Positions 6,510 through 51,822 of a stretch of DNA of 64,000 bases are shown in pieces. Positions within the stretch are counted from its first letter, which is position 1. Each line of letters begins with the position of its first letter. Source of the stretch: Rhodospirillales bacterium (GTDB lineage Bacteria > Pseudomonadota > Alphaproteobacteria > Rhodospirillales > UBA2165); assembly GCA_016777585.1 (NCBI GenBank), contig JADHRD010000002.1, positions 669 to 64,668 of the forward strand, written 5' to 3'. The notes below the pieces were generated by a model, which had not been told where the DNA came from, made no database searches, and saw only the letters and a program-made list of their open reading frames with translations. Both the position numbers and the translations under genes were made by a program.

Positions 6510-6898
6510 TGCCAGACAGTTGGATGATCGCTATCTTGGGTTATAGGAGGTAGAGGAAAGTCCGGGCTCCACGGAAACACGGTGCCGGGTAATACCCGGC
6601 GGGGGTAACTCCAGGGAAAGTGCCACAGAAAGCAAACCGCCCATATTGGGTAAGGGTGAAAGGGTGTGGTAAGAGCACACCGCGCTAACGGTAACGTTGG
6701 CGGCAGGGTAAACCCCACCGGGAGCAAGACCAAATAGGAATGGCTCGTTTTCAAAGTGATTTGAAAATACTTGTGTTTTCGCACTGCTATTCGGGTCGGT
6801 CGCTTGAGACGCTCGGTAACGTTCGTCCTAGATGAATGATCATCATTCTTTGCTACTAACGCAGAGATTACAGAACCCGGCTTATAGACTGTCTGGCA
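6510..6898 (+). ncRNA. rnpB: RNase P RNA, bacterial type A
   Basis: Conserved blocks GAGGAAAGTCCGGGCTCC, AGAAAGCAAACCGCC, GGTAAGGGTGAAAGGGTG, CTAGATGAATGA, ACAGAACCCGGCTTAT. The P1 helix is gccagacagt (6511..6520) paired with actgtctggc (6888..6897). Confidence 0.93.
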
Positions 6899-6998
6899 TA
6901 AAAATTTCTAAAAAATATTACTCGCGAAGGCCTAAAAAATTACAGAATAAGTTCTAAACAAGAAATCTTATTTCCAACCGAGTCTATGTTAAGTTACC

Positions 6999-18519: not shown

Positions 18520-18623
18520 ATTTACAAAAGCCTTTTTTCCTATTGAAATATAATTATAATTTATAATAATTTAGTTACAACATTCTATTAATAGAAAAAT
18601 TTAAAAGTCGAGGAGTATTTAAT

Positions 18624-19271
18624 ATGTCCCTTATTCCAGTAATTTCAGATGAAGAAGCGTCGCCAGAAGTTCAGGCCCTATTTAAAAATATAAAGAAAAT
18701 GTATGGCCGCGTTGCCAATGCCATCCGTGTGGCAGCGCATACTCCACGTATAGCACAAGTGCTTTTTGGCTTTATTGTTGCCTCCCAAAGAAGTGAAATT
18801 AGTGGCAGTCTAACAAAGCGAGTAAAAGGCCTAATAACGCTGAAAACTTCATTATTAAATGGTTGTAATTATTGAATAAGCCATAAAACAACCCTCGGTC
18901 GGGGGTTAGGGTTTTCTGATGAATTACTTGAGGCTGTTAATGGTGACTATCTAGCGTCAAATCTTTTCTCATCAGAGGAAAAAGCGGCACTGCGGTGGGC
19001 GGAGATAGTAACACTGAAACTATATCATTCTGAACCGGGACGCCCGAGCCAATCGCCAGAAGCAATGGCTGAGTTAAAAAATTATTATACATCTGAGCAA
19101 ATTGTTGAACTTACAATCGTAATTGGTCATAATAATTTTTGGAATCGTTTCACAGATAGTCTTGAAATAGATATGGAATCTGATGAACTTCAAGATAAAT
19201 TCAAAAAATCTACTAATGTTGATATCGAAGACTATACTAATTTTATGAAAGATTGTTGGTGGAATAGATAA
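18624..19271 (+). CDS. AhpD/CMD-family peroxidase-related protein, probable selenoprotein (in-frame TGA 18873..18875 read as Sec)
   Basis: Track ORFs 18624..18875 and 19065..19271 are in the same frame (offset 441 = 3 x 147), separated by a single TGA and 63 stop-free codons. The TGA replaces the second Cys of the CxxC-xxH motif (NGCNY-U-ISH). SD GAGGAG precedes the ATG at 18624. Confidence 0.7.
18885..18915 (+). promoter_or_regulatory. candidate bacterial SECIS hairpin
   Basis: Starts 10 nt after the TGA. The lower stem AAAAC/GUUUU and upper stem AACCCUC/GGGGGUU are separated by a 3-nt bulge. The apical loop is GGUC (18897..18900). Confidence 0.55.
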
Positions 19272-31729: not shown

Positions 31730-34198
<2,469 letters not shown>

Positions 34199-34242
34199 TT
34201 AGTAAACAGCTATTTGATAATCTAATTTTTTAGTCTTTGTTG

Positions 34243-35409
34243 TTAATCTACCCCGATTTCGAAATGTTGTGCATTGTTTCTCAAAGAAGAAAAAGTTTCT
34301 GGGTCTGTCCCAGTAATCCATGCTTGAACACCTAAATCGATAATTAGATCAAATAATGAAATTCTACGGTCTTGATCTAAGTGCGCTGTAATTTCATCAA
34401 GTAAAAGAAATGGCGCATAACCTCGCTCTTGTGTCTGAAGAATTACGGCTGCGATTACAAGACTAATTAGAAGGGATTTTTGCTCTCCTGTTGAACATAA
34501 TTTTGCCTCCATCTTATTTTTAGCATGGTAAACCATTAAATCACTCTTATGAGGTCCAAAAGAGGTATAACCCTTGATTCTATCAATTTCTCGAGACGCT
34601 TTCAATTCAACACGTATTTTCTCTTCAACAGCCAAGGCTGGTTCTTTTTCCAACCACCTCTCTACTTCTCCATTAAGTTCAATTAAAGAACCGGGGAATA
34701 CACCATTGCCAATTGAGCAAAATTTTCTCAACCGGTCTACTGTTTGTAACCGTTGTACCGTTACAGCTACCCCATGGCGGGAAATTGATGCCTCAATCGA
34801 ATCCAGCCATTCAGAGTCATCAAAATTATCTTTCAGTAGCCTATTACGGCTTCGAATAGAATGTTCATAAGCACTAACTGGACCAATGTGAGAAGGATCA
34901 AGGGCATAAGTAATTTGATCAATAAATCGACGACGACCAGAAGCACCCTCAGCAAACAACCTATCCATTTGAGGAGTCAACCATTGAGCACTAACGTATT
35001 CACCTAATTCAGATTGGTTCCTAACCACATTACCGTTGATTTTGATCACACGTTTAATGCTTTTTTGACTTTTATTGTCATAATTAGAAAATTCACAACC
35101 CGTACCAATATCCATCATGTTTTCGCCAATTTTTAATTTGGCCGCCACAGCCCAATTTGAAATTTTATCTTCGCCTTGGGATGATTTATGCAAAACTTCA
35201 CTTAATGGCGCTCGTCTTAACCCCTTACCCGGCACTAAAAATGAGAGCGCCTCCAATAAATTAGTTTTTCCAGCTCCGTTTAAACCAGTAAGAACAACGA
35301 GATTACTATCAATGTCAAAACGTTTAAACTTATAAGATCTAAAATTAGACAAAGTGAGCGAACTGATAGCAGTTTTGTCAGATACAGGTTTTTTATTTAC
35401 CTGGTTCAT
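34243..35409 (-). CDS. recF: DNA replication and repair protein RecF
   Basis: LTLSNFRSY, GLNGAGKTNLLEA, SGEQK and LLLDE. It lies between dnaN and gyrB. Confidence 0.95.
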   Translation of the reverse strand: MNQVNKKPVSDKTAISSLTLSNFRSYKFKRFDIDSNLVVLTGLNGAGKTNLLEALSFLVPGKGLRRAPLSEVLHKSSQGEDKISNWAVAAKLKIGENMMDIGTGCEFSNYDNKSQKSIKRVIKINGNVVRNQSELGEYVSAQWLTPQMDRLFAEGASGRRRFIDQITYALDPSHIGPVSAYEHSIRSRNRLLKDNFDDSEWLDSIEASISRHGVAVTVQRLQTVDRLRKFCSIGNGVFPGSLIELNGEVERWLEKEPALAVEEKIRVELKASREIDRIKGYTSFGPHKSDLMVYHAKNKMEAKLCSTGEQKSLLISLVIAAVILQTQERGYAPFLLLDEITAHLDQDRRISLFDLIIDLGVQAWITGTDPETFSSLRNNAQHFEIGVD

Positions 35410-35539
35410 ATTTCTAACACTATATGATAATTTCTTAAAAAAGACCTCAAAAAAATTTATTCCATTTTTTATTATAAATACTTATCCTTAACTATTAGGG
35501 ATGGACATCGCCATAATTATTTAAGTTGCAATCAACCTA

Positions 35540-36658
35540 TCAAACCCTCATTGGCATTAAAACGTATAATGCACCTTGATCCTCTAGATCTTCTATCAGT
35601 GTTGGTGATGATGAATTTGCCAAGGTAAAACGTATTAGTTTACCTTCTATTTGTTGGGCTATATCCAATAAATAACGAGAGTTGAAACCAATTTCCATCT
35701 CCACTTCATCATAATCTACTTGCAACTCTTCGGTGGCAGAATCATTTTCTGCGCTATTTGCTGAGAGTATTAGGCTCCCTTTTGAGACAGACAGCTTTAC
35801 CGATCGGGATTTCTCGTTAGAAATAGCAGATACACGATCCACCGCCTGAGAAAATAAATGGGCATCCACCTCAAGCACCTTATCATTGTTATCTGGAATG
35901 ACACGGTCATAATCTGGGAATGTCCCATCAATCAACTTTGATGTTAATGCAGTCCCGTCAAAACTAAATTTAATCTTAGTATCGGATAGACCCACCTCAA
36001 TATCTTCCTCGCCTTCATCAATTAGCTTACGCATTTCCGCAACTGCTTTACGGGGTAAAATAACCCCTGGCATGTCTAATGCACCTTGTGGTAAGGGTAA
36101 TTCTACACTTGCTAGCCTGTGACCATCCGTTGCCACTGCACGCAATACATTAGTATCACCTCTTTTAGCAGCGTGAAGATATATCCCGTTCAAATAATAA
36201 CGAGTTTCCTCTGTAGAAATAGCAAATTTTGATCTATCAATTAAACCTCTCAAATCACTTGATTTAAGTATAAAATTTATCGGCAAGTCGCCAGTTGAAG
36301 CTACTGGAAAATCCTCGGTTGGCAAACATGTTAACTTAAAATTAGAACGACCAGATATCAATGTTAGCTGTTTATCATCTCCATCCGAATCTAAAACAAT
36401 CTGAGATCCGTCAGGCAACTTTCTAACAATATCATATAATGTATGGGCTGGTGCAGTGGCTGAACCACCACCACTTATATCAGCTGGAATTTGCTCAACT
36501 ATGTCTATATCCATATCGGTTGCATGCAAAGTAAGAACATTATTTTGAGCTTCAAATTTTACATTTGATAAAATAGGGATGGTGTTTCTTCGCTCTACAA
36601 CTCCTTGGATATGATTTAAAACTTTTAATAACAATCCCCGTTCAATAGTAATTTTCAT
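35540..36658 (-). CDS. dnaN: DNA polymerase III beta sliding clamp
   Basis: 372 aa, NTIPILSNV, ATDGHRLA, YVLMPMRV C-terminus. Confidence 0.95.
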   Translation of the reverse strand: MKITIERGLLLKVLNHIQGVVERRNTIPILSNVKFEAQNNVLTLHATDMDIDIVEQIPADISGGGSATAPAHTLYDIVRKLPDGSQIVLDSDGDDKQLTLISGRSNFKLTCLPTEDFPVASTGDLPINFILKSSDLRGLIDRSKFAISTEETRYYLNGIYLHAAKRGDTNVLRAVATDGHRLASVELPLPQGALDMPGVILPRKAVAEMRKLIDEGEEDIEVGLSDTKIKFSFDGTALTSKLIDGTFPDYDRVIPDNNDKVLEVDAHLFSQAVDRVSAISNEKSRSVKLSVSKGSLILSANSAENDSATEELQVDYDEVEMEIGFNSRYLLDIAQQIEGKLIRFTLANSSSPTLIEDLEDQGALYVLMPMRV

Positions 36659-36998
36659 GATATTACGATTTCCTACTCGCTCTTAAATTTATAGATTTTA
36701 TTTTAACAACTAAAAGTATGTTTTTCGTTAAAATATATTTTTAAATTTATATTTAGACATCTCTGCATCAACTGTTAAATAAATTATATACTGACACCAT
36801 GATAACTAGCATAAACTCAAGGGTAGTATAGCAGGTTAGGCAATATAGGTAAGCTTTTTACTATAAAAATATAAACTTTTTTATTTTTTATTAATAGGTC
36901 CAACGCAATAATTTGCGAGCCTACAATACGACAAAAAGTACTTGAAAAAAATAACCAAACTTATTCTTAGCTTCGAAAATTTATGCTATATAAACCTT

Positions 36999-38417
36999 TT
37001 AGCCCTCTAACATGCGCTTTAAAAGATCTACATCTTCTGCAAAGCTATTATCGTGATCGCATAATTCGTCAACTTTTTTAACCGCATGCATCACCGTTGT
37101 ATGGTCTCTTCCACCAAATTTTCTCCCTATTTCAGGTAATGATCTAGATGTAAGCTGTTTTGATAAATACATGGCCACCTGACGTGGGCGCGCAACAGAC
37201 CTGGCTCGGCGGGCCGAATGCATGTCTGAAATACGGATATTAAAATGCTCAGCTACACTTTTTTGGATTTCTTCAATAGTTACCTTGCGGTCATTCGAGC
37301 GAAGAAGGTCATGGAGTATATCTTGCGTTGTTTCCAATGTTAAATCCCTTCCAACCAATTGTGTATGAGCAGCAACACGGTTTAACGCACCCTCTAATTC
37401 ACGAACATTCGAAGTAATTCTATGTGCCAAGAACTCAACCACGTTGCGGGGAACTTCCAATTTCATTTTTTCAGCTTTAGTCTCTAATATAGCCAAACGG
37501 AGCTCATAAGTTGTAGCATGAATGTCTGCGACCAAACCACAATTAAGCCTCGATTTTAGACGCTCTTCAACTCCTTCAAGATCTGACGGCGATTTATCGG
37601 CTGACAAAATTATTTGTCGACCCTGATCAACCAGCGCATTAAATGTGTGAAAGAACTCTTCTTGAGTTGCATCTCGACCACCAATGAATTGGACATCGTC
37701 AATCATTAATACATCAACCGAGCGAAATTGCTCCTTAAAGTCCACAGTGTTTTTTTCTCTTAAGGCTCTAACAAATCTATACATAAATTTTTCTGCAGAC
37801 AGATACATTACTGTGCGGGCGGGGTCCCTCTCTAGTATTTCCCAAGCAATCGCATTCATCAAATGAGTTTTACCTAAACCAACTCCACCATATAAGAACA
37901 ACGGATTAAAAAAAACTGATGACGCCTGAGCCACGCGTCTAGCTGCTGCATAAGCAAATTCGTTTGGCTTACCAACCACAAATTGATCAAATTTGAATCT
38001 TCCATCCAAAGGTGCAGAAATTTGACTGTCAGAAATATGCGGCGGGGTAGCTTTTTCTTTTTGATCTGACTTGACAACAACTTTAGCATCTAAATCATTT
38101 TTTTTATCAATATTATTATATTCTCTGGACACATGCGGCTGATTTTTCAAACTCGGCTGGATTATAACATCTACAGAGTTAACGACGTTATTCTCTCTAG
38201 TCCACAAATCCTTGAGACGATCTATGTAATTTGCCACTACCCAGTCACGCATGAACCTCGATGGAACAGCTAATCTGACTTCTGAGTTTCTAACATCAAA
38301 GGCTTTTATCGGCCTCACCCAGTTTTCAAAAGCGGTTTCGCCAATTTCGGTTTTTAAAGTGTTGCTTACTCTAAGCCATTGTTCCTGTAAACCTTTATCT
38401 TCAGAACTCATACCCAT
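36999..38417 (-). CDS. dnaA: chromosomal replication initiator DnaA
   Basis: GGVGLGKTHL, LMIDDVQF, SNVRELEGAL and the C-terminal DNA-binding KFGGRDHTTVMHA. The start is ambiguous: TTG 38435, ATG 38417 or ATG 38411. Confidence 0.95.
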   Translation of the reverse strand: MGMSSEDKGLQEQWLRVSNTLKTEIGETAFENWVRPIKAFDVRNSEVRLAVPSRFMRDWVVANYIDRLKDLWTRENNVVNSVDVIIQPSLKNQPHVSREYNNIDKKNDLDAKVVVKSDQKEKATPPHISDSQISAPLDGRFKFDQFVVGKPNEFAYAAARRVAQASSVFFNPLFLYGGVGLGKTHLMNAIAWEILERDPARTVMYLSAEKFMYRFVRALREKNTVDFKEQFRSVDVLMIDDVQFIGGRDATQEEFFHTFNALVDQGRQIILSADKSPSDLEGVEERLKSRLNCGLVADIHATTYELRLAILETKAEKMKLEVPRNVVEFLAHRITSNVRELEGALNRVAAHTQLVGRDLTLETTQDILHDLLRSNDRKVTIEEIQKSVAEHFNIRISDMHSARRARSVARPRQVAMYLSKQLTSRSLPEIGRKFGGRDHTTVMHAVKKVDELCDHDNSFAEDVDLLKRMLEG

Positions 38418-38906
38418 GCTTGCCAGCCCCAACAATAAACATCTATCGATAACAGTCTGTCAGTATAACCATACCGACATAATCGAATTCTAATCTCAAA
38501 CGATCATATATGATAGCGTTTTAATTCCAACAAAAGAGCAATTTTTAATTTTGCTCCCGCCCAATCTTTTAACGGTCACACTTTTTCCAAAATAATCTTA
38601 AGATTAAAATGCACCCTGAATATCCTTTAAAAATTTCTGGTAATCACCTTTTTATAATTTTTTTTAATTTATCTTGAAATAATGTTAAAAGATAACCTCA
38701 AGACAAGATTAACCTTACATAACAAATTTTTTTGATTCAATAGGTCCGAAAGGAGAACGTGTAAAATTTTCTTCTTGACATGAAACAAAGATTCGAATCG
38801 TGACTTATAAAAGGCATTATTTTAATAATATTTTTCTACAACAATAAACGATGTTTATTACAACTCTGTTTTTACTGATTAAAAAAAATTGAGATGGTGG
38901 CTTCTA

Positions 38907-39173
38907 TTAAGTTTTTAAAGATTTGATCTTCTTTGAGAGCCTAGATATTTTTCTCGACGCTGTATTACGATGAAGGAGACTCTTTTGAGCGGACCTCATT
39001 AGTTTCGGCTCGGCTGTCTTTAACGCCTCTTTCGCAGCAACCACATCACCAGATTCTATAGCTTTTTCTACCAATTTGACTTGCGTTCGCATGTCACTGC
39101 GACGGCCACGATTAACTTCTGACTTTCTCTCGGTTTGTAAGATACGCTTTTTAGCAGATTTAATATTAGCCAT
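38907..39173 (-). CDS. rpsT: 30S ribosomal protein S20
   Basis: Starts MANIKSAKKRILQTERK at the internal ATG 39173. The track extension to 39200 is unlikely. Confidence 0.92.
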   Translation of the reverse strand: MANIKSAKKRILQTERKSEVNRGRRSDMRTQVKLVEKAIESGDVVAAKEALKTAEPKLMRSAQKSLLHRNTASRKISRLSKKIKSLKT

Positions 39174-39302
39174 GATTTCCAACGACATTAATTTTGACAA
39201 TGAGTCGAAGACAGAGTGCTATCTTCGAGTTGCGAGTTTATATATGGGTAACTCTAACGCGTCAAGCCTTAGAAGTTTTCATTGGAATATTTAAAAGAAG
39301 TT

Positions 39303-39683
39303 TTATGGTTTAATTGGCTCCGGAGTAATAGAGAATTTTATTCGGGTGTTTCTATTCACAATTATGGAAAGATTGATGCTTAAAATTTCTTTATCTCGCA
39401 AAAAAATATTTTTTCCTACATCCCTCCAACCTAATTGAGGTAACGTATCTGCATAAAATTCGCGGACCTTTAATAGTGGAATTTTTCCAACCGCCGCAAC
39501 TTCAACTATTCTTCCACTAGGTGTGTCAAATATTAGTGCAGTTTGTTTTTGTATTTTAAGGCCAGACATCAATGGCACATCATTAAGTATAGAGATAAAT
39601 GCGCTTTGTGAGTAAACAATGTTTGGTGGAAAATAAAATGTTATGGCAAAAGATAAAAATAACAAATTTTTCATAAAATCCAT
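39303..39683 (-). CDS. hypothetical exported protein
   Basis: Hydrophobic N-terminal signal-like segment (LLFLSFAITFYFPP). No family recognised. Confidence 0.45.
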   Translation of the reverse strand: MDFMKNLLFLSFAITFYFPPNIVYSQSAFISILNDVPLMSGLKIQKQTALIFDTPSGRIVEVAAVGKIPLLKVREFYADTLPQLGWRDVGKNIFLRDKEILSINLSIIVNRNTRIKFSITPEPIKP

Positions 39684-39695
39684 CTTTTCAATGAG

Positions 39696-45213: not shown

Positions 45214-46179
45214 ATGAATAAATCATCGGAATTTAGGGGTCGTATATACGACAGCATAATAGAAACTATCGGTGCTACTCCATTAATTAAATTAAACCGC
45301 CTACCGAAGAATCATAATTGTCTTGCTGTTATACTTGGTAAATGTGAGTTTTTTAATCCATTAGCTTCAGTTAAAGATCGTATTGGACATGCCATGATTA
45401 TTGCGGCTGAGAATGATGGAAAATTAAAAGAAGGCTCAGTCATTATTGAACCAACATCCGGTAATACTGGAATTGCATTAGCATTCATTGCAGCAGCTAA
45501 AGGTTATCGACTAATATTAACGATGCCAGAAAGCATGTCTGAAGAACGTCGAAAAATGTTATATTTATTAGGGGCGGAAATAATATTAACTCCAGCTTCT
45601 AAAGGAATGAGAGGGGCTATTGAGAAGGCTGAGGAAATTGTGAGTGACACCCCTAATGCATTCATGCCACAGCAATTTAGTAATAACTCGAACCCTGAGA
45701 TTCATTGTCAAACGACGGCTGAAGAAATTTGGTTAGATACAGGGGGAAACGTTGACGCAATTATTGCAGGCATTGGCACCGGAGGAACTTTTACCGGTAT
45801 TGGTAGTAAATTAAAGAAAAGAAAACCAAATATTCGTATGATTGCTATAGAACCTGAAGATAGTTCAGTAATATCTGGCGGTATTCCTGGTCCTCATAAG
45901 ATACAAGGTATTGGTGCAGGATTTATTCCAGATAACCTTGATACTAGTCTTATTGATGAGGTAATACAGATTGGCAATGAAACAGCATTAATAACCGCGC
46001 GTCAGGCAGCTAGGTTGGAAGGTTTGCCTGTTGGTATATCGTCAGGCGCCGCAATAGCTGCTGCTCTTGAAGTTGGTTCACGGTCAGAAATGTTAGATAA
46101 AAGAATTGTTGTAATTCTTCCTTCTTTTGCCGAAAGGTATTTATCTACTGCGCTGTTTGATGGAATTAATGTCAGGTGA
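45214..46179 (+). CDS. cysK: cysteine synthase A (O-acetylserine sulfhydrylase)
   Basis: PLIKLNR, FNPLASVKDR (PLP Lys), EPTSGNTGIALA, GIGTGGTFTG. Ends with TGA at 46177..46179. Confidence 0.9.
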   Translation: MNKSSEFRGRIYDSIIETIGATPLIKLNRLPKNHNCLAVILGKCEFFNPLASVKDRIGHAMIIAAENDGKLKEGSVIIEPTSGNTGIALAFIAAAKGYRLILTMPESMSEERRKMLYLLGAEIILTPASKGMRGAIEKAEEIVSDTPNAFMPQQFSNNSNPEIHCQTTAEEIWLDTGGNVDAIIAGIGTGGTFTGIGSKLKKRKPNIRMIAIEPEDSSVISGGIPGPHKIQGIGAGFIPDNLDTSLIDEVIQIGNETALITARQAARLEGLPVGISSGAAIAAALEVGSRSEMLDKRIVVILPSFAERYLSTALFDGINVR

Positions 46180-46186
46180 TCGAATT

Positions 46187-46981
46187 ATGTCTCTAACGGA
46201 TCAACAAATTGAGAGGTATGCAAGACACATTCTCCTTCCAGAAATAGGTGGTAGTGGACAAGCAAAGATTCGTAAAGCAAGGGTACTAGTGATCGGGGCC
46301 GGAGGTCTCAGCACCCCCATAATACAATATCTTACAGCAGCCGGTATAGGCACAATCGGGTTAATAGATGACGACATAGTTGAACTAAGCAACCTTCAAC
46401 GTCAGGTCATGCACTCAACCTCACGATTAGGAATGAAAAAGGTATTAAGTGCTAAAATCGCAGCGAGGGAAATTAATCCGGATACAGACATTATTTGCCA
46501 TTCTGAACGTTTAACGTACAAGAATGCCCGCCAATTAATATCTGAATATGATATTGTTTCTGACGGGTGTGATAATTTTTCAACTAGGTTTTTAGTAATG
46601 GATGGCTGCTACCTTGAACGAAAAACCTTAGTCTCAGGAGCCATTATGCGTTTTGACGGGCAACTAAGTGTTTTTAAACCCCATGAGAGAATTGAAGGAG
46701 ATTGTCCCTGTTATCGCTGCCTATATCCCAAAGCACCACCCCCAAATACAATCCCAACGTGCGCTGAAGCTGGAGTATTGGGATCGCTATGTGGTATAAT
46801 TGGGTCTTTGCAAGCAACTGAAATCCTAAAGGAAATTACAGGCACAGGAGAAAGTTTGTCTGGATCATTAATTATTTTTAATGCTCTTAGTACTCAGTTT
46901 AGGAAAATAAAAATTAGACCTGATCCAAAGTGCTTATTATGCAGTCCATCCGCAACCATTACAGAGCTCGCTCAAGAATGA
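46187..46981 (+). CDS. moeB: HesA/MoeB/ThiF family adenylyltransferase
   Basis: RYARHILLPEIGGSGQ, VIGAGGLS, SNLQRQ, CPCYRC and CLLC zinc pairs. ATG 46187 lies 8 nt after the cysK stop; the track start at 46127 overlaps cysK. Confidence 0.85.
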   Translation: MSLTDQQIERYARHILLPEIGGSGQAKIRKARVLVIGAGGLSTPIIQYLTAAGIGTIGLIDDDIVELSNLQRQVMHSTSRLGMKKVLSAKIAAREINPDTDIICHSERLTYKNARQLISEYDIVSDGCDNFSTRFLVMDGCYLERKTLVSGAIMRFDGQLSVFKPHERIEGDCPCYRCLYPKAPPPNTIPTCAEAGVLGSLCGIIGSLQATEILKEITGTGESLSGSLIIFNALSTQFRKIKIRPDPKCLLCSPSATITELAQE

Positions 46982-48727: not shown

Positions 48728-49318
48728 TTATTTAAAATCCTTTGCCAATGTAACTCGCGACTCTTCTTGTAAGATTGTTGAGTGACTATATTTTGGATGA
48801 TTTATTTCCAATACAACTCGCGCTCCATTTCTTTTAAAGTCTGCAATCTCTGATTCTGAGAAATTAAAATGTGCAAATTGAACTGAAGAAGCCTTACCTT
48901 TAGCACTTGTGCGATCAACATCTTCTTCAGGCACTGCGTTAATTATTTTTTCACCCAAACGCATAGTAATTTTTTCTTCAACTCCCCCGAGTCCTGATAA
49001 AAATGCGGTTCGTATATCTGGATTATCGATCTCGAACATTAAAGTTGCAACGAGCTCCGTTCCATTAGGAATGAGTGGATTGTAAGCCCTCAATTCGTCA
49101 GGGATTTGTTCTTGCCCACCTTTTTCAATTCGGAGCATCTCCTGAACCTGATACCACATTGTATTATATGATTCAAAATAGAATGTTGCATAAGGACCAA
49201 CCGCTATTCTGCGTAGTTTTTTTTCTTCAACAATATCTTTTCTAAAGTTATTTCTAATAGCTTCATATCTTTTTGTATCTATTATGTCACTTTCTTCAAG
49301 TTTAGTTTTTATAGTCAT
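48728..49318 (-). CDS. DUF3501 family protein
   Basis: About 195 aa, overlapping the upstream (Fe-S) gene by 1 nt. Family and context assignment are from memory. Confidence 0.6.
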   Translation of the reverse strand: MTIKTKLEESDIIDTKRYEAIRNNFRKDIVEEKKLRRIAVGPYATFYFESYNTMWYQVQEMLRIEKGGQEQIPDELRAYNPLIPNGTELVATLMFEIDNPDIRTAFLSGLGGVEEKITMRLGEKIINAVPEEDVDRTSAKGKASSVQFAHFNFSESEIADFKRNGARVVLEINHPKYSHSTILQEESRVTLAKDFK

Positions 49319-50646
49319 TATTTAATTCCGTATGCTAAGGCTAAAATCTGAATTGGGTGTTGAACAACTTTATTAAAATTTTCTGGATTATTCTCATTAA
49401 GCTTTTCGATTCCTTGTATTATGTGTTCACGCGCGAGAGGGCACTCAGAAACAATATATTTTGCCTTTGACTCTAGAGCCTTGCGCGCAGCTGGACGCCC
49501 TATCTTCAGGGCAACCTCAAAATTTTCCTTCATAATTCCCCAAGATCCCCCGTGACCAGAGCATCTCTCGACAACCTCAACCCGAGTTTCTGGTATTAAC
49601 CTCAACATCTCCGCAGCCTTTGGGCCCATATTCTGCGCCCTAGAGTGGCATGCTAATTGAAGACTAATTGACCCGTCAAGGGCCACCATCTCCTTTGATA
49701 ATTCGCCATTTTTCGCTAAATGAACTATATATTCAGCAGCATCAAATGTATTTTGGCTTAAGAGCTTAACGTTTTCATCATCTGGCAGAACCAATGGCCA
49801 CTCAAATTTCAGCATTAGAGCACATGAGGGAATTAAGGCGACAATTTCATAACCTTTTTTAATCCAATTGACCAATTCGGACGCTACATTCTTAGCTGAC
49901 TCTGCAACACCCTTTAAATCGCCCTGCTCCAATTGAGGCATACCACAACAAGCAGGATAAACGAGTTCAACCTCGACATTATTTTTGGCCAACACAGCCC
50001 TCATGGCATCACCAATGCTAGGATTATTATAATTGCCAAAACACGTTGCATACAGCGCAACTTTTCTTTTAGGTTCAGAAGCAGGTTTCAGCGGAGTCCG
50101 TTTTGTCAAAGGAGTGTTAGTAAATTTTGGTAATTCTGCATCCCTATGTATCTTTGCAACTTTTTCTATTGTTGTCCGAGTAATTTTGTTCTGACGCCTT
50201 GTACTCCAATTAACAAGGCTTGCAAACGGGCTGGCAAGACTGCCGTTTCTATCCGTTTTCGTGATTTGTTTTGCAGTGTAAGCGACTTTTCCCTGATCAA
50301 ACTCCATTGCCCTGTATCGTAGCATCAAGTGCGGGAAATCCAGATCAAATTCGTGAGGGGGGACGTACGGGCATTTTGTCATAAAACACATGTCGCAGAA
50401 TGTGCACGCGTCGACTATAGGTTTAAAATCTTTGCTTTCAACCGTATCCAGTTCTTCGCTGTCCGAGTCATCAATCAGATCAAATAATCTTGGGAAACTA
50501 TCACAGAGATTAAAACAACGTCGGCAACCGTGGCATACATCAAAAACTCGACGCAGTTCGTTGTCAATTTTCTTCGGATCTAAATAGTCTTTTTCTTTCC
50601 AGGGGATGTTGTGGCGTGTAGGCGCCTCTAAGCTACCTTCAGACAT
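49318..50646 (-). CDS. (Fe-S)-binding protein, heterodisulfide-reductase/GlpC-like with CCG domains
   Basis: Two ferredoxin-type Cys clusters (CHGCRRCFNLCDSFP, CTFCDMCFMTKCPYVPP), then C-terminal CCG-type motifs (PACCGMP, CSGHGG). Confidence 0.8.
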   Translation of the reverse strand: MSEGSLEAPTRHNIPWKEKDYLDPKKIDNELRRVFDVCHGCRRCFNLCDSFPRLFDLIDDSDSEELDTVESKDFKPIVDACTFCDMCFMTKCPYVPPHEFDLDFPHLMLRYRAMEFDQGKVAYTAKQITKTDRNGSLASPFASLVNWSTRRQNKITRTTIEKVAKIHRDAELPKFTNTPLTKRTPLKPASEPKRKVALYATCFGNYNNPSIGDAMRAVLAKNNVEVELVYPACCGMPQLEQGDLKGVAESAKNVASELVNWIKKGYEIVALIPSCALMLKFEWPLVLPDDENVKLLSQNTFDAAEYIVHLAKNGELSKEMVALDGSISLQLACHSRAQNMGPKAAEMLRLIPETRVEVVERCSGHGGSWGIMKENFEVALKIGRPAARKALESKAKYIVSECPLAREHIIQGIEKLNENNPENFNKVVQHPIQILALAYGIK

Positions 50647-50685
50647 TAAAGCTACACCTTGTATTTTTATAGATTAAAATGATAA

Positions 50686-50706
50686 GGGGAGACAAAAGGC
50701 CTCCCC
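50686..50706 (-). terminator. GC-rich hairpin downstream of rubrerythrin (possible terminator or attenuator)
   Basis: ggggag / acaaaaggc / ctcccc, 35 nt after the rubrerythrin stop. The minus-strand tail is only moderately U-rich. Confidence 0.35.
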
Positions 50707-50740
50707 CGGATATCAATTACATGCTTTTTAAATTTTATTT

Positions 50741-51160
50741 CTAATCTAACGAGTCTAATGCTTTTTGAAAACGTCCAGCATGGGATTTTTCAGCTTTTGC
50801 AAGAGTTTCAAACCAGTCTGCAATTTCGTCGAAGCCCTCTTCTCTAGCCGTCTTCGCCATACCTGGGTACATATCTGTATACTCGTGGGTTTCTCCCTCA
50901 ACTGCTGCTGCTAGATTATGCGCTGTTGGCCCTATGGGAAGACCCGTAGCTGGGTCGCCCGACTCTTCGAGATACTCCAAGTGTCCATGCGCGTGACCTG
51001 TCTCGCCTTCAGCAGTCGACCTAAAAACAGTAGATACATCATTATAACCCTCTACATCAGCTTTTTGTGCAAAATATAAATATCTACGATTAGCCTGTGA
51101 TTCACCAGCAAATGCGTCTTTCAAATTTTGTTCTGTATTTGATCCTTTAAGTGCAGGCAT
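50741..51160 (-). CDS. rubrerythrin family protein (diiron four-helix bundle, no rubredoxin domain)
   Basis: [49 protein letters not shown]. Confidence 0.9.
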
Positions 51161-51312
51161 GGATTGTTCCTTTCCGTTAAAATAAACTGTTATTGGTATT
51201 ACGTAATCTAATTACGTTTGGATTTCTCAAACTAAGAGTAACTTAAGCTATTTTAATTTATTTAGTCAACAATTTTTTTAATGATTCTAAAAAAATATAT
51301 AAACTATTGTTA

Positions 51313-51735
51313 TTAAGTATTTTTATTCTTTACACGAACAATTACGTCTATTCTCTCCAACTTCTCGCAACTATTTATACTTGGCAGACCCTTCAATTGT
51401 ACATCTTCTAAATTAATATCTGTTAATTCATTATTATCTTCATTAAAGATATGGTGATGTTCTGTAATATTCGTATCAAAATAACTGCAACCTGAATTTA
51501 CAATTATTTCCTGCAACAAACCAGCGGATTTAAGAGTATTTAGGGCATTATAAACAGTAGCCAGAGATATCTTTTGTCCAGATAAAGAGGCCTCTGTATG
51601 AAGACCTTCTGCAGTAACATGGCGATTCTTCCCATCAAAGAGCAGCCTTGATAAAGCCAATCTCTGTCTAGTGGGCCTCAGGCCTGCTCCAGTTAAAGTT
51701 CTAATCACATTGCTGTATGGACGGATTTTTTCCAA
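51313..51735 (-). CDS. irr: Fur-family iron response regulator Irr
   Basis: LRPTRQRLALSRLLF winged helix and the HHH motif (ITEHHHIF). It neighbours fabI-fabB-fabA, as is common in alphaproteobacteria. Confidence 0.8.
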   Translation of the reverse strand: MEKIRPYSNVIRTLTGAGLRPTRQRLALSRLLFDGKNRHVTAEGLHTEASLSGQKISLATVYNALNTLKSAGLLQEIIVNSGCSYFDTNITEHHHIFNEDNNELTDINLEDVQLKGLPSINSCEKLERIDVIVRVKNKNT

Positions 51736-51822
51736 ACCATAACTCCTTAAATAATTAGCATAACAAAGACAAAGCGTTTTTCAATTAGAGCATTTCCTAA
51801 ATAACATATTAGTTCAAATATT

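Follow-up and report, generated by a model that had tools for sequence, protein, structure and literature searches.

The 64,000-nucleotide (nt) stretch of contig JADHRD010000002.1 from a Rhodospirillales bacterium that we analysed (hereafter the window) holds at 18624..19271, on the plus strand like all features of this locus given below, an interrupted reading frame that, judged from its sequence, very likely represents one functional gene that encodes a selenoprotein of 215 residues with the carboxymuconolactone decarboxylase (CMD)/AhpD fold, with selenocysteine (Sec, U) predicted at an in-frame UGA within a CxxU motif. Translation revealed one frame of 215 sense codons (M1...R215) closed by a TAA at 19269..19271, which we take as the true stop and around which the ends of homologs fall within a few residues. 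The sole interruption of this frame is a TGA at 18873-18875, codon 84, in the context LLNGCNY-TGA-ISHKT, and a mechanical list of open reading frames (ORFs) accordingly cuts the locus in two, into 18624..18875 (83 amino acids, aa) and 19065..19271 (68 aa). A preliminary description of the locus had placed both pieces in one frame with the TGA as the only interruption, and sequence and translation agree on this. It had also judged the 63 open codons that separate the TGA from the ATG at 19065 unlikely by chance; none of them is a stop, and we estimate the probability of the full 131 stop-free codons 3' of the TGA at ~1e-4 at the window GC content of 38.6%. The same cut is found in public annotation, where a mis-annotation as two fragments had been expected: on three contigs with an identical neighbouring alcohol dehydrogenase gene the public call is the 83-aa N-terminal piece, and on Ga0115568_10006457, the sole contig of the three that is long enough, the 68-aa piece is called as well.

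Evaluating the position of the TGA among relatives, we gathered 157 related loci from scans of reference genomes and metagenomes, of which 155 were classified by codon. At column 84 these carry TGA in 123 loci, TGC in 28 and TGT in 4, with no other residue and no natural C-terminus among the 155, such that the alignment check proposed in the preliminary description returned only TGA or Cys (32 loci), and most of the loci retrieved for this CMD-like family have Sec rather than Cys. A protein search further returned ~60 full-length homologs with 50-56% identity and an NGCxYCxxH motif, along with C-terminal fragments of 119-129 aa. The TGA forms span 50-98% identity to the window protein and occur in metagenome-assembled genomes (MAGs) labelled Rhodospirillales/Rhodospirillaceae, Hyphomicrobiales, MarineAlpha3, Gammaproteobacteria (Rariloculaceae), SAR324, Nitrospinota and Acidimicrobiales. 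The closest reference genome, Rhodospirillaceae bacterium TMED23, carries a Sec form 93% identical to the window protein (L005, NHCC01000018.1). A second Sec paralog, 54% identical, lies on another contig of TMED23 (L079, NHCC01000009.1), and a GGUC hairpin is present in both TMED23 loci.

These comparisons bear directly on whether the locus is a pseudogene or carries a sequencing or assembly error, in which a Cys codon would have mutated to, or been misread as, TGA. TGT and TGC are indeed one base from TGA and public callers do give two fragments, yet the 123 loci with TGA come from independent projects and reach down to 50% identity. Tara, JGI, Logan and GenBank assemblies, which are independent of one another, carry the TGA at 92-98% identity and again at 55%, and a sequencing error or a recent pseudogene is therefore excluded. 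Selection on the frame speaks in the same direction. The ratios of non-synonymous to synonymous substitution rates (dN/dS; Nei-Gojobori, window versus five relatives) are 0.042-0.082 over codons 85-215 and 0.014-0.076 over codons 1-83, and both halves are thus under equally strong purifying selection as protein, with which the family-like translation that had been noticed 3' of the TGA is borne out, as it also is by the full-length homologs. A dedicated hairpin moreover accompanies the TGA and is missing from the Cys forms (see below). Taken with these observations, a pseudogene or error at this site has a practically negligible probability.

The TGA might also be read as an amino acid without Sec, either through code reassignment (UGA as Trp or Gly under genetic code 4 or 25) or through readthrough in which a near-cognate or suppressor tRNA inserts Cys or Trp. 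Metagenome orthologs translated with W at the critical column (database entries P0001-P0003 and P0063) would fit such a reading, as would the failure to find Sec machinery in the window or related loci. The DNA of these four entries (L001-L004) reads TGA at that codon, however, and the W is for this reason a gene call under code 4; probably these are short contigs called under that code. TGA is the ordinary stop of 6 of the 42 long frames of the window, and a scan for TGA-split genes found no other window gene with a convincing in-frame TGA, from which we conclude that the standard genetic code applies. Further points against reassignment are that the UGA lies exactly on the catalytic Cys column, that a SelB-type hairpin with the GGUC loop of fdhF is kept only alongside TGA, and that genomes such as the one represented by locus L007 hold other TGA-at-Cys genes of known families (PrdB-like UxxC, TIGR01926 CxxU). 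We therefore consider reassignment or Sec-independent readthrough very unlikely. The W-for-U entries themselves could be mined systematically for hidden selenoproteins.

Directly 3' of the TGA lies a hairpin that we evaluated as a candidate selenocysteine insertion sequence (SECIS) element, numbering from the U of UGA as nt 1. Its core at 18890..18907 consists of a perfect 7-bp stem (AACCCUC at 18890-18896 with GGGGGUU at 18901-18907; nt 18-24 with 29-35) closed by a GGUC tetraloop at 18897-18900 (nt 25-28), with the stem 14 nt 3' of the TGA and the loop starting 21 nt after the A of UGA. The bSECISearch model allows a UGA-to-loop spacing of 16-37 nt, and, as is general for SECIS elements, the stem-loop of the window lies just 3' of the UGA and its apical loop is small and contains G (in such elements usually GU). 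The hairpin with a GGUC loop named in the preliminary description, 18885..18915, is the extended form found in the minimum free energy structure, which adds a lower stem (AAAAC/GUUUU, 18885-18889 with 18911-18915) and a 3-nt bulge. As the register of the lower stem differs between clades, we take only the upper stem as established.

Conservation of this upper stem was assessed in an alignment of 88 unique Sec-form sequences in register (alignment A2), over which the protein alignment is gap-free at the hairpin. Standard base pairs fill 93.5% of the stem cells, versus 23-47% after a shift of the 3' partner by 1-3 columns, and the observed pairing, counted over 84 distinct Sec-form sequences, was reached by 0 of 500 shuffles. 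Compensatory double changes occur at pair 19:34 (AU to GC, 6 sequences) and at pair 21:32 (GC to CG, 5 sequences, which are the window's own clade), and the GGUC loop is present in 83 of 88 Sec forms. The hairpin nucleotides also encode T-L-G-R-A/G-L, and our key control for coding constraint was therefore the usage of synonymous sites. In the Sec forms the codons over the hairpin are frozen (Leu CTC 86/88, Gly GGT 83/88, Thr ACG 75/82), across Sec loci of 34-66% GC, whereas synonyms alternate freely at the codons that flank the stem. For the same L-G-R the 31 Cys forms use CTC, CTG or CTT and GGC, GGT, GGA or GGG; in them 3-4 of the 7 stem positions pair and the loops are mixed. The hairpin is thus conserved, covarying and confined to the Sec (TGA) forms. 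Together with the TGA/Cys column and the dN/dS values, this upholds the earlier reading of the locus as a CxxU selenoprotein: the UGA aligns with Cys, and both it and the frame downstream are conserved under purifying selection.

Comparison with the experimentally defined SECIS of Escherichia coli fdhF, which we confirmed at 100% identity in the fdhF of >5,400 E. coli genomes, revealed the same arrangement, a coding-region hairpin directly 3' of the UGA with an apical GGUC presenting G and U. The two differ in that the fdhF loop occupies nt 22-25 from the U of UGA and so lies one codon closer than that of the window, which starts at nt 25, and in that the fdhF stem has a bulged U in place of the perfect 7-bp helix; the stem sequences are unrelated. 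A core of the form AACGCUC-GGUC-GRGCGUU is near-identical in MAGs assigned to five phyla or classes (34-66% GC), which could reflect dual coding combined with constraint by SelB, a horizontal spread in which gene and SECIS travelled together, or errors in binning. Searches of Rfam matched no SECIS family, either for the window at gathering thresholds or for 18800-19000 at E-value thresholds, where noise was returned, with RNase P RNA found elsewhere. The 123 Sec and 32 Cys loci could seed a covariance model of the CMD-like SECIS, which Rfam lacks.

A hairpin behind a TGA could also be an intrinsic terminator or attenuator. The TGA would then be a real stop, the product an 83-aa peptide only and 19065..19271 a separate small gene, and a terminator scan does flag 18890-18907 followed by a GGGTTTTCT tail. 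The T-run is not conserved in the other Sec forms of alignment A2, however, while the hairpin is. Between the TGA and the next ATG all 63 codons are open and their translation is conserved, and the 83-aa product would stop inside the catalytic helix. Translation signals point the same way: a Shine-Dalgarno sequence read directly from the DNA, GAGGAG at 18610..18615, lies 8 nt 5' of the ATG at 18624, and inspection of the sequence found none comparable 5' of the internal ATG at 19065. Because the GGGTTTTCT tail is not conserved and the downstream frame is selected as protein, we reject the terminator reading, which we hold to be extremely unlikely, in favour of Sec insertion at a SECIS-like hairpin.

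Several observations nevertheless weigh against Sec insertion. The folding energy of the window hairpin is no better than that of shuffled sequence (z = -0.30 and -0.82), though the shuffle z-score does not discriminate, because the validated fdhF SECIS scores equally weakly (z = -0.91). Most stem positions are near-invariant, and since the encoded peptide T-L-G-R-A-L is conserved as well, the nucleotide conservation can be separated from coding only in part. The RNAalifold consensus over the 88 sequences is weak (-2.46 kcal/mol, 5 of 7 pairs); we consider the explicit pair count the more informative of the two. Finally, that the source organism decodes Sec is something we infer, as neither the window nor the related loci (1.54 Mb) yielded selA, selB, selD or a tRNA-Sec gene. 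The 64-kb window contains no tRNA and hence no tRNA-Sec, and none was found in 60 genome loci. No SelA, SelB or SelD domain was detected by Pfam in the 47 other window ORFs of >= 150 aa, and tblastn of the E. coli SelA, SelB and SelD proteins against the window and the 1.54 Mb of loci (164 related) matched only the GTPase domain of SelB against IF-2. Sec decoding is indirectly strongly supported because the SECIS is specific to the TGA forms and because related genomes, L007 and similar ones, hold further TGA-at-Cys genes of known families.

In L007 itself (CAZNLR010000007.1, uncultured Rhodospirillaceae) three TGA-recoded genes lie within 4 kb, at L007:8043-11904. This cluster comprises a TIGR01926-type CxxU gene on the minus strand (NGCKY-TGA-FAHN), an HxlR regulator, a conserved 243-aa protein without a family, and a CMD-like CxxU gene followed after ~40 nt by a PrdB/GrdB-like gene with CPV-TGA-PSC (UxxC), an adjacency of CxxU and UxxC proteins that is reminiscent of GrdA/GrdB. 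An L007-like arrangement recurs in ~49 Sec-form loci; the window copy stands without such context. We did not find an L007-type cluster described in the operon section of a 2026 review.

We next turn to the protein, for which translation, Pfam, homologs, a structural model and dN/dS all describe one gene, 18624..19271, with the motif C81-N-Y-U84-I-S-H87. Cys81, the first residue of the CxxU (TGT, 18864..18866), occupies a column that is invariant in alignments A3 and A4 and is probably the resolving thiol. The predicted Sec codon U84 (18873..18875) follows, and then His87 (CAT, 18882..18884), a conserved active-site residue at U+3 that is invariant in 88/88 Sec forms and 31/31 Cys forms. The preliminary description was right to place the TGA at the second Cys of a CxxC motif, but the His spacing that it gave, GCxYCxxxH, does not hold: the motif is GCxY-U-xxH, with His at +3.

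With Cys in place of the TGA, the readthrough product matches the Pfam CMD family PF02627 (E 3e-8, 34 bits, cutoff 23). Its best NCBIfam matches are selenoprotein-aware AhpD-type models, all under their cutoffs: the YciW-related (seleno)protein NF053654 at 64 bits against 310, TIGR01926 at 40.2 against 81.8, and the AhpD core model TIGR00778, missed marginally at 26.9 against 27.8. An AlphaFold2 (AF2) model made from ortholog P0001, 98% identical and with W at the Sec site, gave an all-helical AhpD fold (predicted local distance difference test score, pLDDT, 90.9; predicted template modelling score, pTM, 0.87), with a block of lower pLDDT (66) at residues 131-140. Foldseek against the PDB returned 36 matches with E <= 1e-3, all of the CMD/AhpD superfamily. 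Among them, at 17-25% identity, are Atu0492 (2gmy), PA0269, Deinococcus radiodurans AhpD (6k40, TM-score by query length, TMq, 0.74) and Bmp8 (6ohi, TMq 0.69), and for AhpD-family structures the TM-score is at most 0.74 when normalised by query length and 0.87-0.92 when normalised by target length. Profile matches among PDB sequences were concordant. In the model, then, the window protein has the all-alpha fold of the CMD/AhpD superfamily with the CxxC on the conserved two-helix core. Full-length homologs extend from 50 to 98% identity.

Two features outside the motif vary with the Sec state. A 7-residue insertion (PGRPSQS-like) is absent from all 32 Cys forms, whereas 99 of 121 Sec forms have the long form; in the window this clade-specific insertion is SEPGRPSQS, residues ~136-144 (19029..19055; alignment A1), a low-confidence loop in the model. 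A Cys before the C-terminal WW (DCWWN) is present in 109 of 121 Sec forms (90%) and in 14 of 32 Cys forms (44%), and in the window it is Cys211 (TGT, 19254..19256).

That Sec-containing AhpD-like proteins had been reported in marine surveys, and that the family was probably not new, had been suggested at the outset, and we found the precise family in a 2005 supplement. The Sargasso Sea selenoproteome (Zhang et al. 2005, PMC1088965) lists two CxxU families, "AhpD-like protein" (COG2128, 27 sequences) and "CMD domain-containing protein" (4), and its supplement places AACY01102305 and AACY01567769 in the latter, with the signature ...LNxCAYuTSHN.TLGRALGF...GFFNFWNRFTDS.EIDIED and the C-terminal motif DCWWN in the former sequence and SCWWN in the latter. 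AACY01102305 aligns with the window protein over 189 gap-free residues at 58% identity (E 1e-84), and the window protein shares with the published CMD-like family the signature LNxCxY-U-xxH...FNFWNRFTDSLEID...DCWWN with Sec at the same column. The similarity extends to the RNA. The DNA of AACY01567769 3' of the TGA reads TGAACCAGCCACAATGAAACGCTCGGTCGAGCGTTAGG in the supplement (PMC1088965), which matches the family consensus of alignment A2 and from which the window differs by one compensated pair, with the downstream RNA ...AACGCTCGGTCGAGCGTT... common to both. Membership in the CMD-like CxxU family is accordingly seen in sequence similarity, in PF02627 with Sec at the second CxxC position and in the SECIS element.

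Within this family the window gene differs from the published members as part of a diverged subclade (group L082-L091, 65-98% identical) that has K for N at U+4, GHNNFWNRF for GFFNFWNRF and C:G for G:C at pair 21:32, and its gene neighbourhood differs from that of the published loci. A survey of the Global Ocean Sampling data (PMC2398784) lists AhpD-like 1 (COG2128, 299 sequences) and AhpD-like 2 (pfam02627, 70), both CxxU, and the 2026 review tabulates "CMD-like protein, PF02627, CxxU" apart from "AhpD-like protein, TIGR01926, CxxU". The AhpD-like TIGR01926/COG2128 selenoproteins share with the window protein the fold superfamily, a CxxU with Sec in second position and a marine distribution, and such a gene adjoins the CMD-like gene in loci such as L007. 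The two are separated by their TIGR01926 scores (40.2 bits for the window protein versus 81.2 for the L007 minus-strand paralog) and by their C-terminal halves (FFNFFNRLTD in the AhpD-like proteins versus FNFWNRFTD...DCWWN in the CMD-like family). By sequence comparison the window gene is thus assigned to the CMD-like family, separate from AhpD-like TIGR01926. Given the match to AACY01102305 and the further agreement with the published members, the family, its Sec site and its SECIS are therefore already published: the CMD-like CxxU family, the Sec position and the SECIS have been on record since 2005, and current reviews and databases include them. What is new here is the annotation correction and material for a SECIS model, which adds little scientifically. 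The correction itself is concrete, as public calls give 83-aa fragments (with the 68-aa piece where the contig reaches) or a Trp under code 4, and the locus would serve well as a positive control for gene callers that recognise selenoproteins.

The label AhpD/CMD used for the locus at first holds only in part. PF02627 and the AhpD fold stand, but the AhpD relay is absent and the TIGR01926 and TIGR00778 thresholds were missed. Mycobacterium tuberculosis AhpD and Pseudomonas PA0269 (PMC3141380; PDB 2o4d, 2ijc, 7xw1, 2gmy) have the same all-helical fold with the CxxC on a helix-turn-helix, and proteins of this type match with profile E values of ~1e-19 to the core, TM-scores by target length of 0.87-0.92 and 17-25% identity. 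Their canonical relay of Glu(-12), Cys, Cys and His(+4) (PMC3141380) is not reproduced in the window protein, in which position -12 is Gly69 (Ala in most homologs), and the His stands at +3, followed at +4 by Lys in the window clade and by Asn in other homologs. At 215 aa the window protein is also longer than the AhpD types, with N- and C-terminal extensions, and no ahpC or other peroxiredoxin gene was found near the gene or among the window ORFs of >= 150 aa by Pfam annotation. A CMD-superfamily CxxU selenoprotein, and not an AhpD, should hence be the proper description. The gamma-carboxymuconolactone decarboxylase PcaC was considered and ruled out: gamma-CMD members lack both the CxxC and the relay (PMC3141380), the CxxU is present here, and the lone gamma-CMD structure match, 2q0t, is insignificant (E 0.42). 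A nearer parallel in spacing is the tetrabromopyrrole debrominase Bmp8 (PDB 6ohi, 6ohj), a thiol-dependent reductive dehalogenase of the CMD family that matches over residues 13-181 (profile E 1.4e-12; TMq 0.69-0.70) and shares the GCxYCxxH spacing with His at +3 (GCMYCKSH in Bmp8). It differs in having Cys rather than Sec and in its ~20% identity, and no bmp-type halogenation gene context is present in the 64-kb window; a functional analogy with Bmp8 is speculative.

As to mechanism, we infer that Sec rather than another amino acid is inserted at the UGA and that insertion depends on SelB. A ribosome reaching UGA-84 would find the hairpin 14 nt downstream bound by SelB with GTP and Sec-tRNA(Sec), and selenocysteine would be inserted in place of termination. 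The active site C81-x-x-U84-x-x-H87 is predicted to lie at a helix N-terminus, where nucleophilic attack on an oxidised substrate or partner would most likely come from Sec84; Cys81 would then resolve the intermediate to a selenenylsulfide, to be recycled by a cellular reductant, and His87 would assist. The nucleophile is placed in the second position on the basis of mutagenesis reported for M. tuberculosis AhpD (Cys133). The biochemical role would most likely be that of a selenol/thiol oxidoreductase.

A more specific and rather unlikely proposal is that the protein is not a peroxidase adaptor but a component of a selenium-dependent reductase with a new substrate, which by analogy could take either of two forms. 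In a GrdA-like form, the CxxU protein may act as the partner that passes reducing equivalents to the PrdB/GrdB-like UxxC selenoprotein encoded ~40 nt downstream in ~49 loci, which, if true, would make a three-selenoprotein redox module under an HxlR regulator in aerobic marine Rhodospirillales. In a Bmp8-like form, it may be a reductive dehalogenase that uses Sec, as thyroid deiodinase does, with the CxxCxxH spacing of Bmp8 in common. Were either form true, the window copy would be a paralog that has departed from the operon context.

Around the gene, the neighbours are a divergent zinc-dependent alcohol dehydrogenase gene and a dCTP deaminase gene. The selenoprotein gene and the divergent alcohol dehydrogenase gene have a 104-nt intergenic region in common, which holds a candidate sigma-70-like promoter (TTGAAA-16-AATAAT, 18543..18570; 10/12 matches in a consensus scan, a pattern match only) among 7 promoter-like sites, compared to 4.0 +/- 1.8 in shuffles.

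Elsewhere in the window we found no further selenoprotein, as covered by the scan for TGA-split genes, a ThiF/MoeB-family gene and the ORF-poor stretch 50647-51822. MoeB is among the published marine selenoprotein families, but the ThiF/MoeB-family gene of the window (46127-46981, plus strand) closes with a clean double stop and shows no TGA extension. A cluster of oxidative-stress type at 48728-51735 on the minus strand comprises a Fur-like regulator (51313-51735), a rubrerythrin (50741-51160), a CCG-domain Fe-S protein (49318-50646) and DUF3501 (48728-49318), with no in-frame TGA in any of them. Also on the minus strand, dnaA (36999-38435), dnaN (35540-36658), recF (34243-35409) and gyrB (31730-34198) stand in a row (31730-38435), and the window therefore spans the chromosomal replication-origin region. 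The stretch 38436-38906 upstream of dnaA holds no clear gene and is probably oriC; it is followed, up to 39695, by an rpsT-like ORF and small ORFs (38436-39695 overall). An RNase P RNA of class A lies at 6512-6900 on the plus strand (Rfam RF00010, 319 bits).

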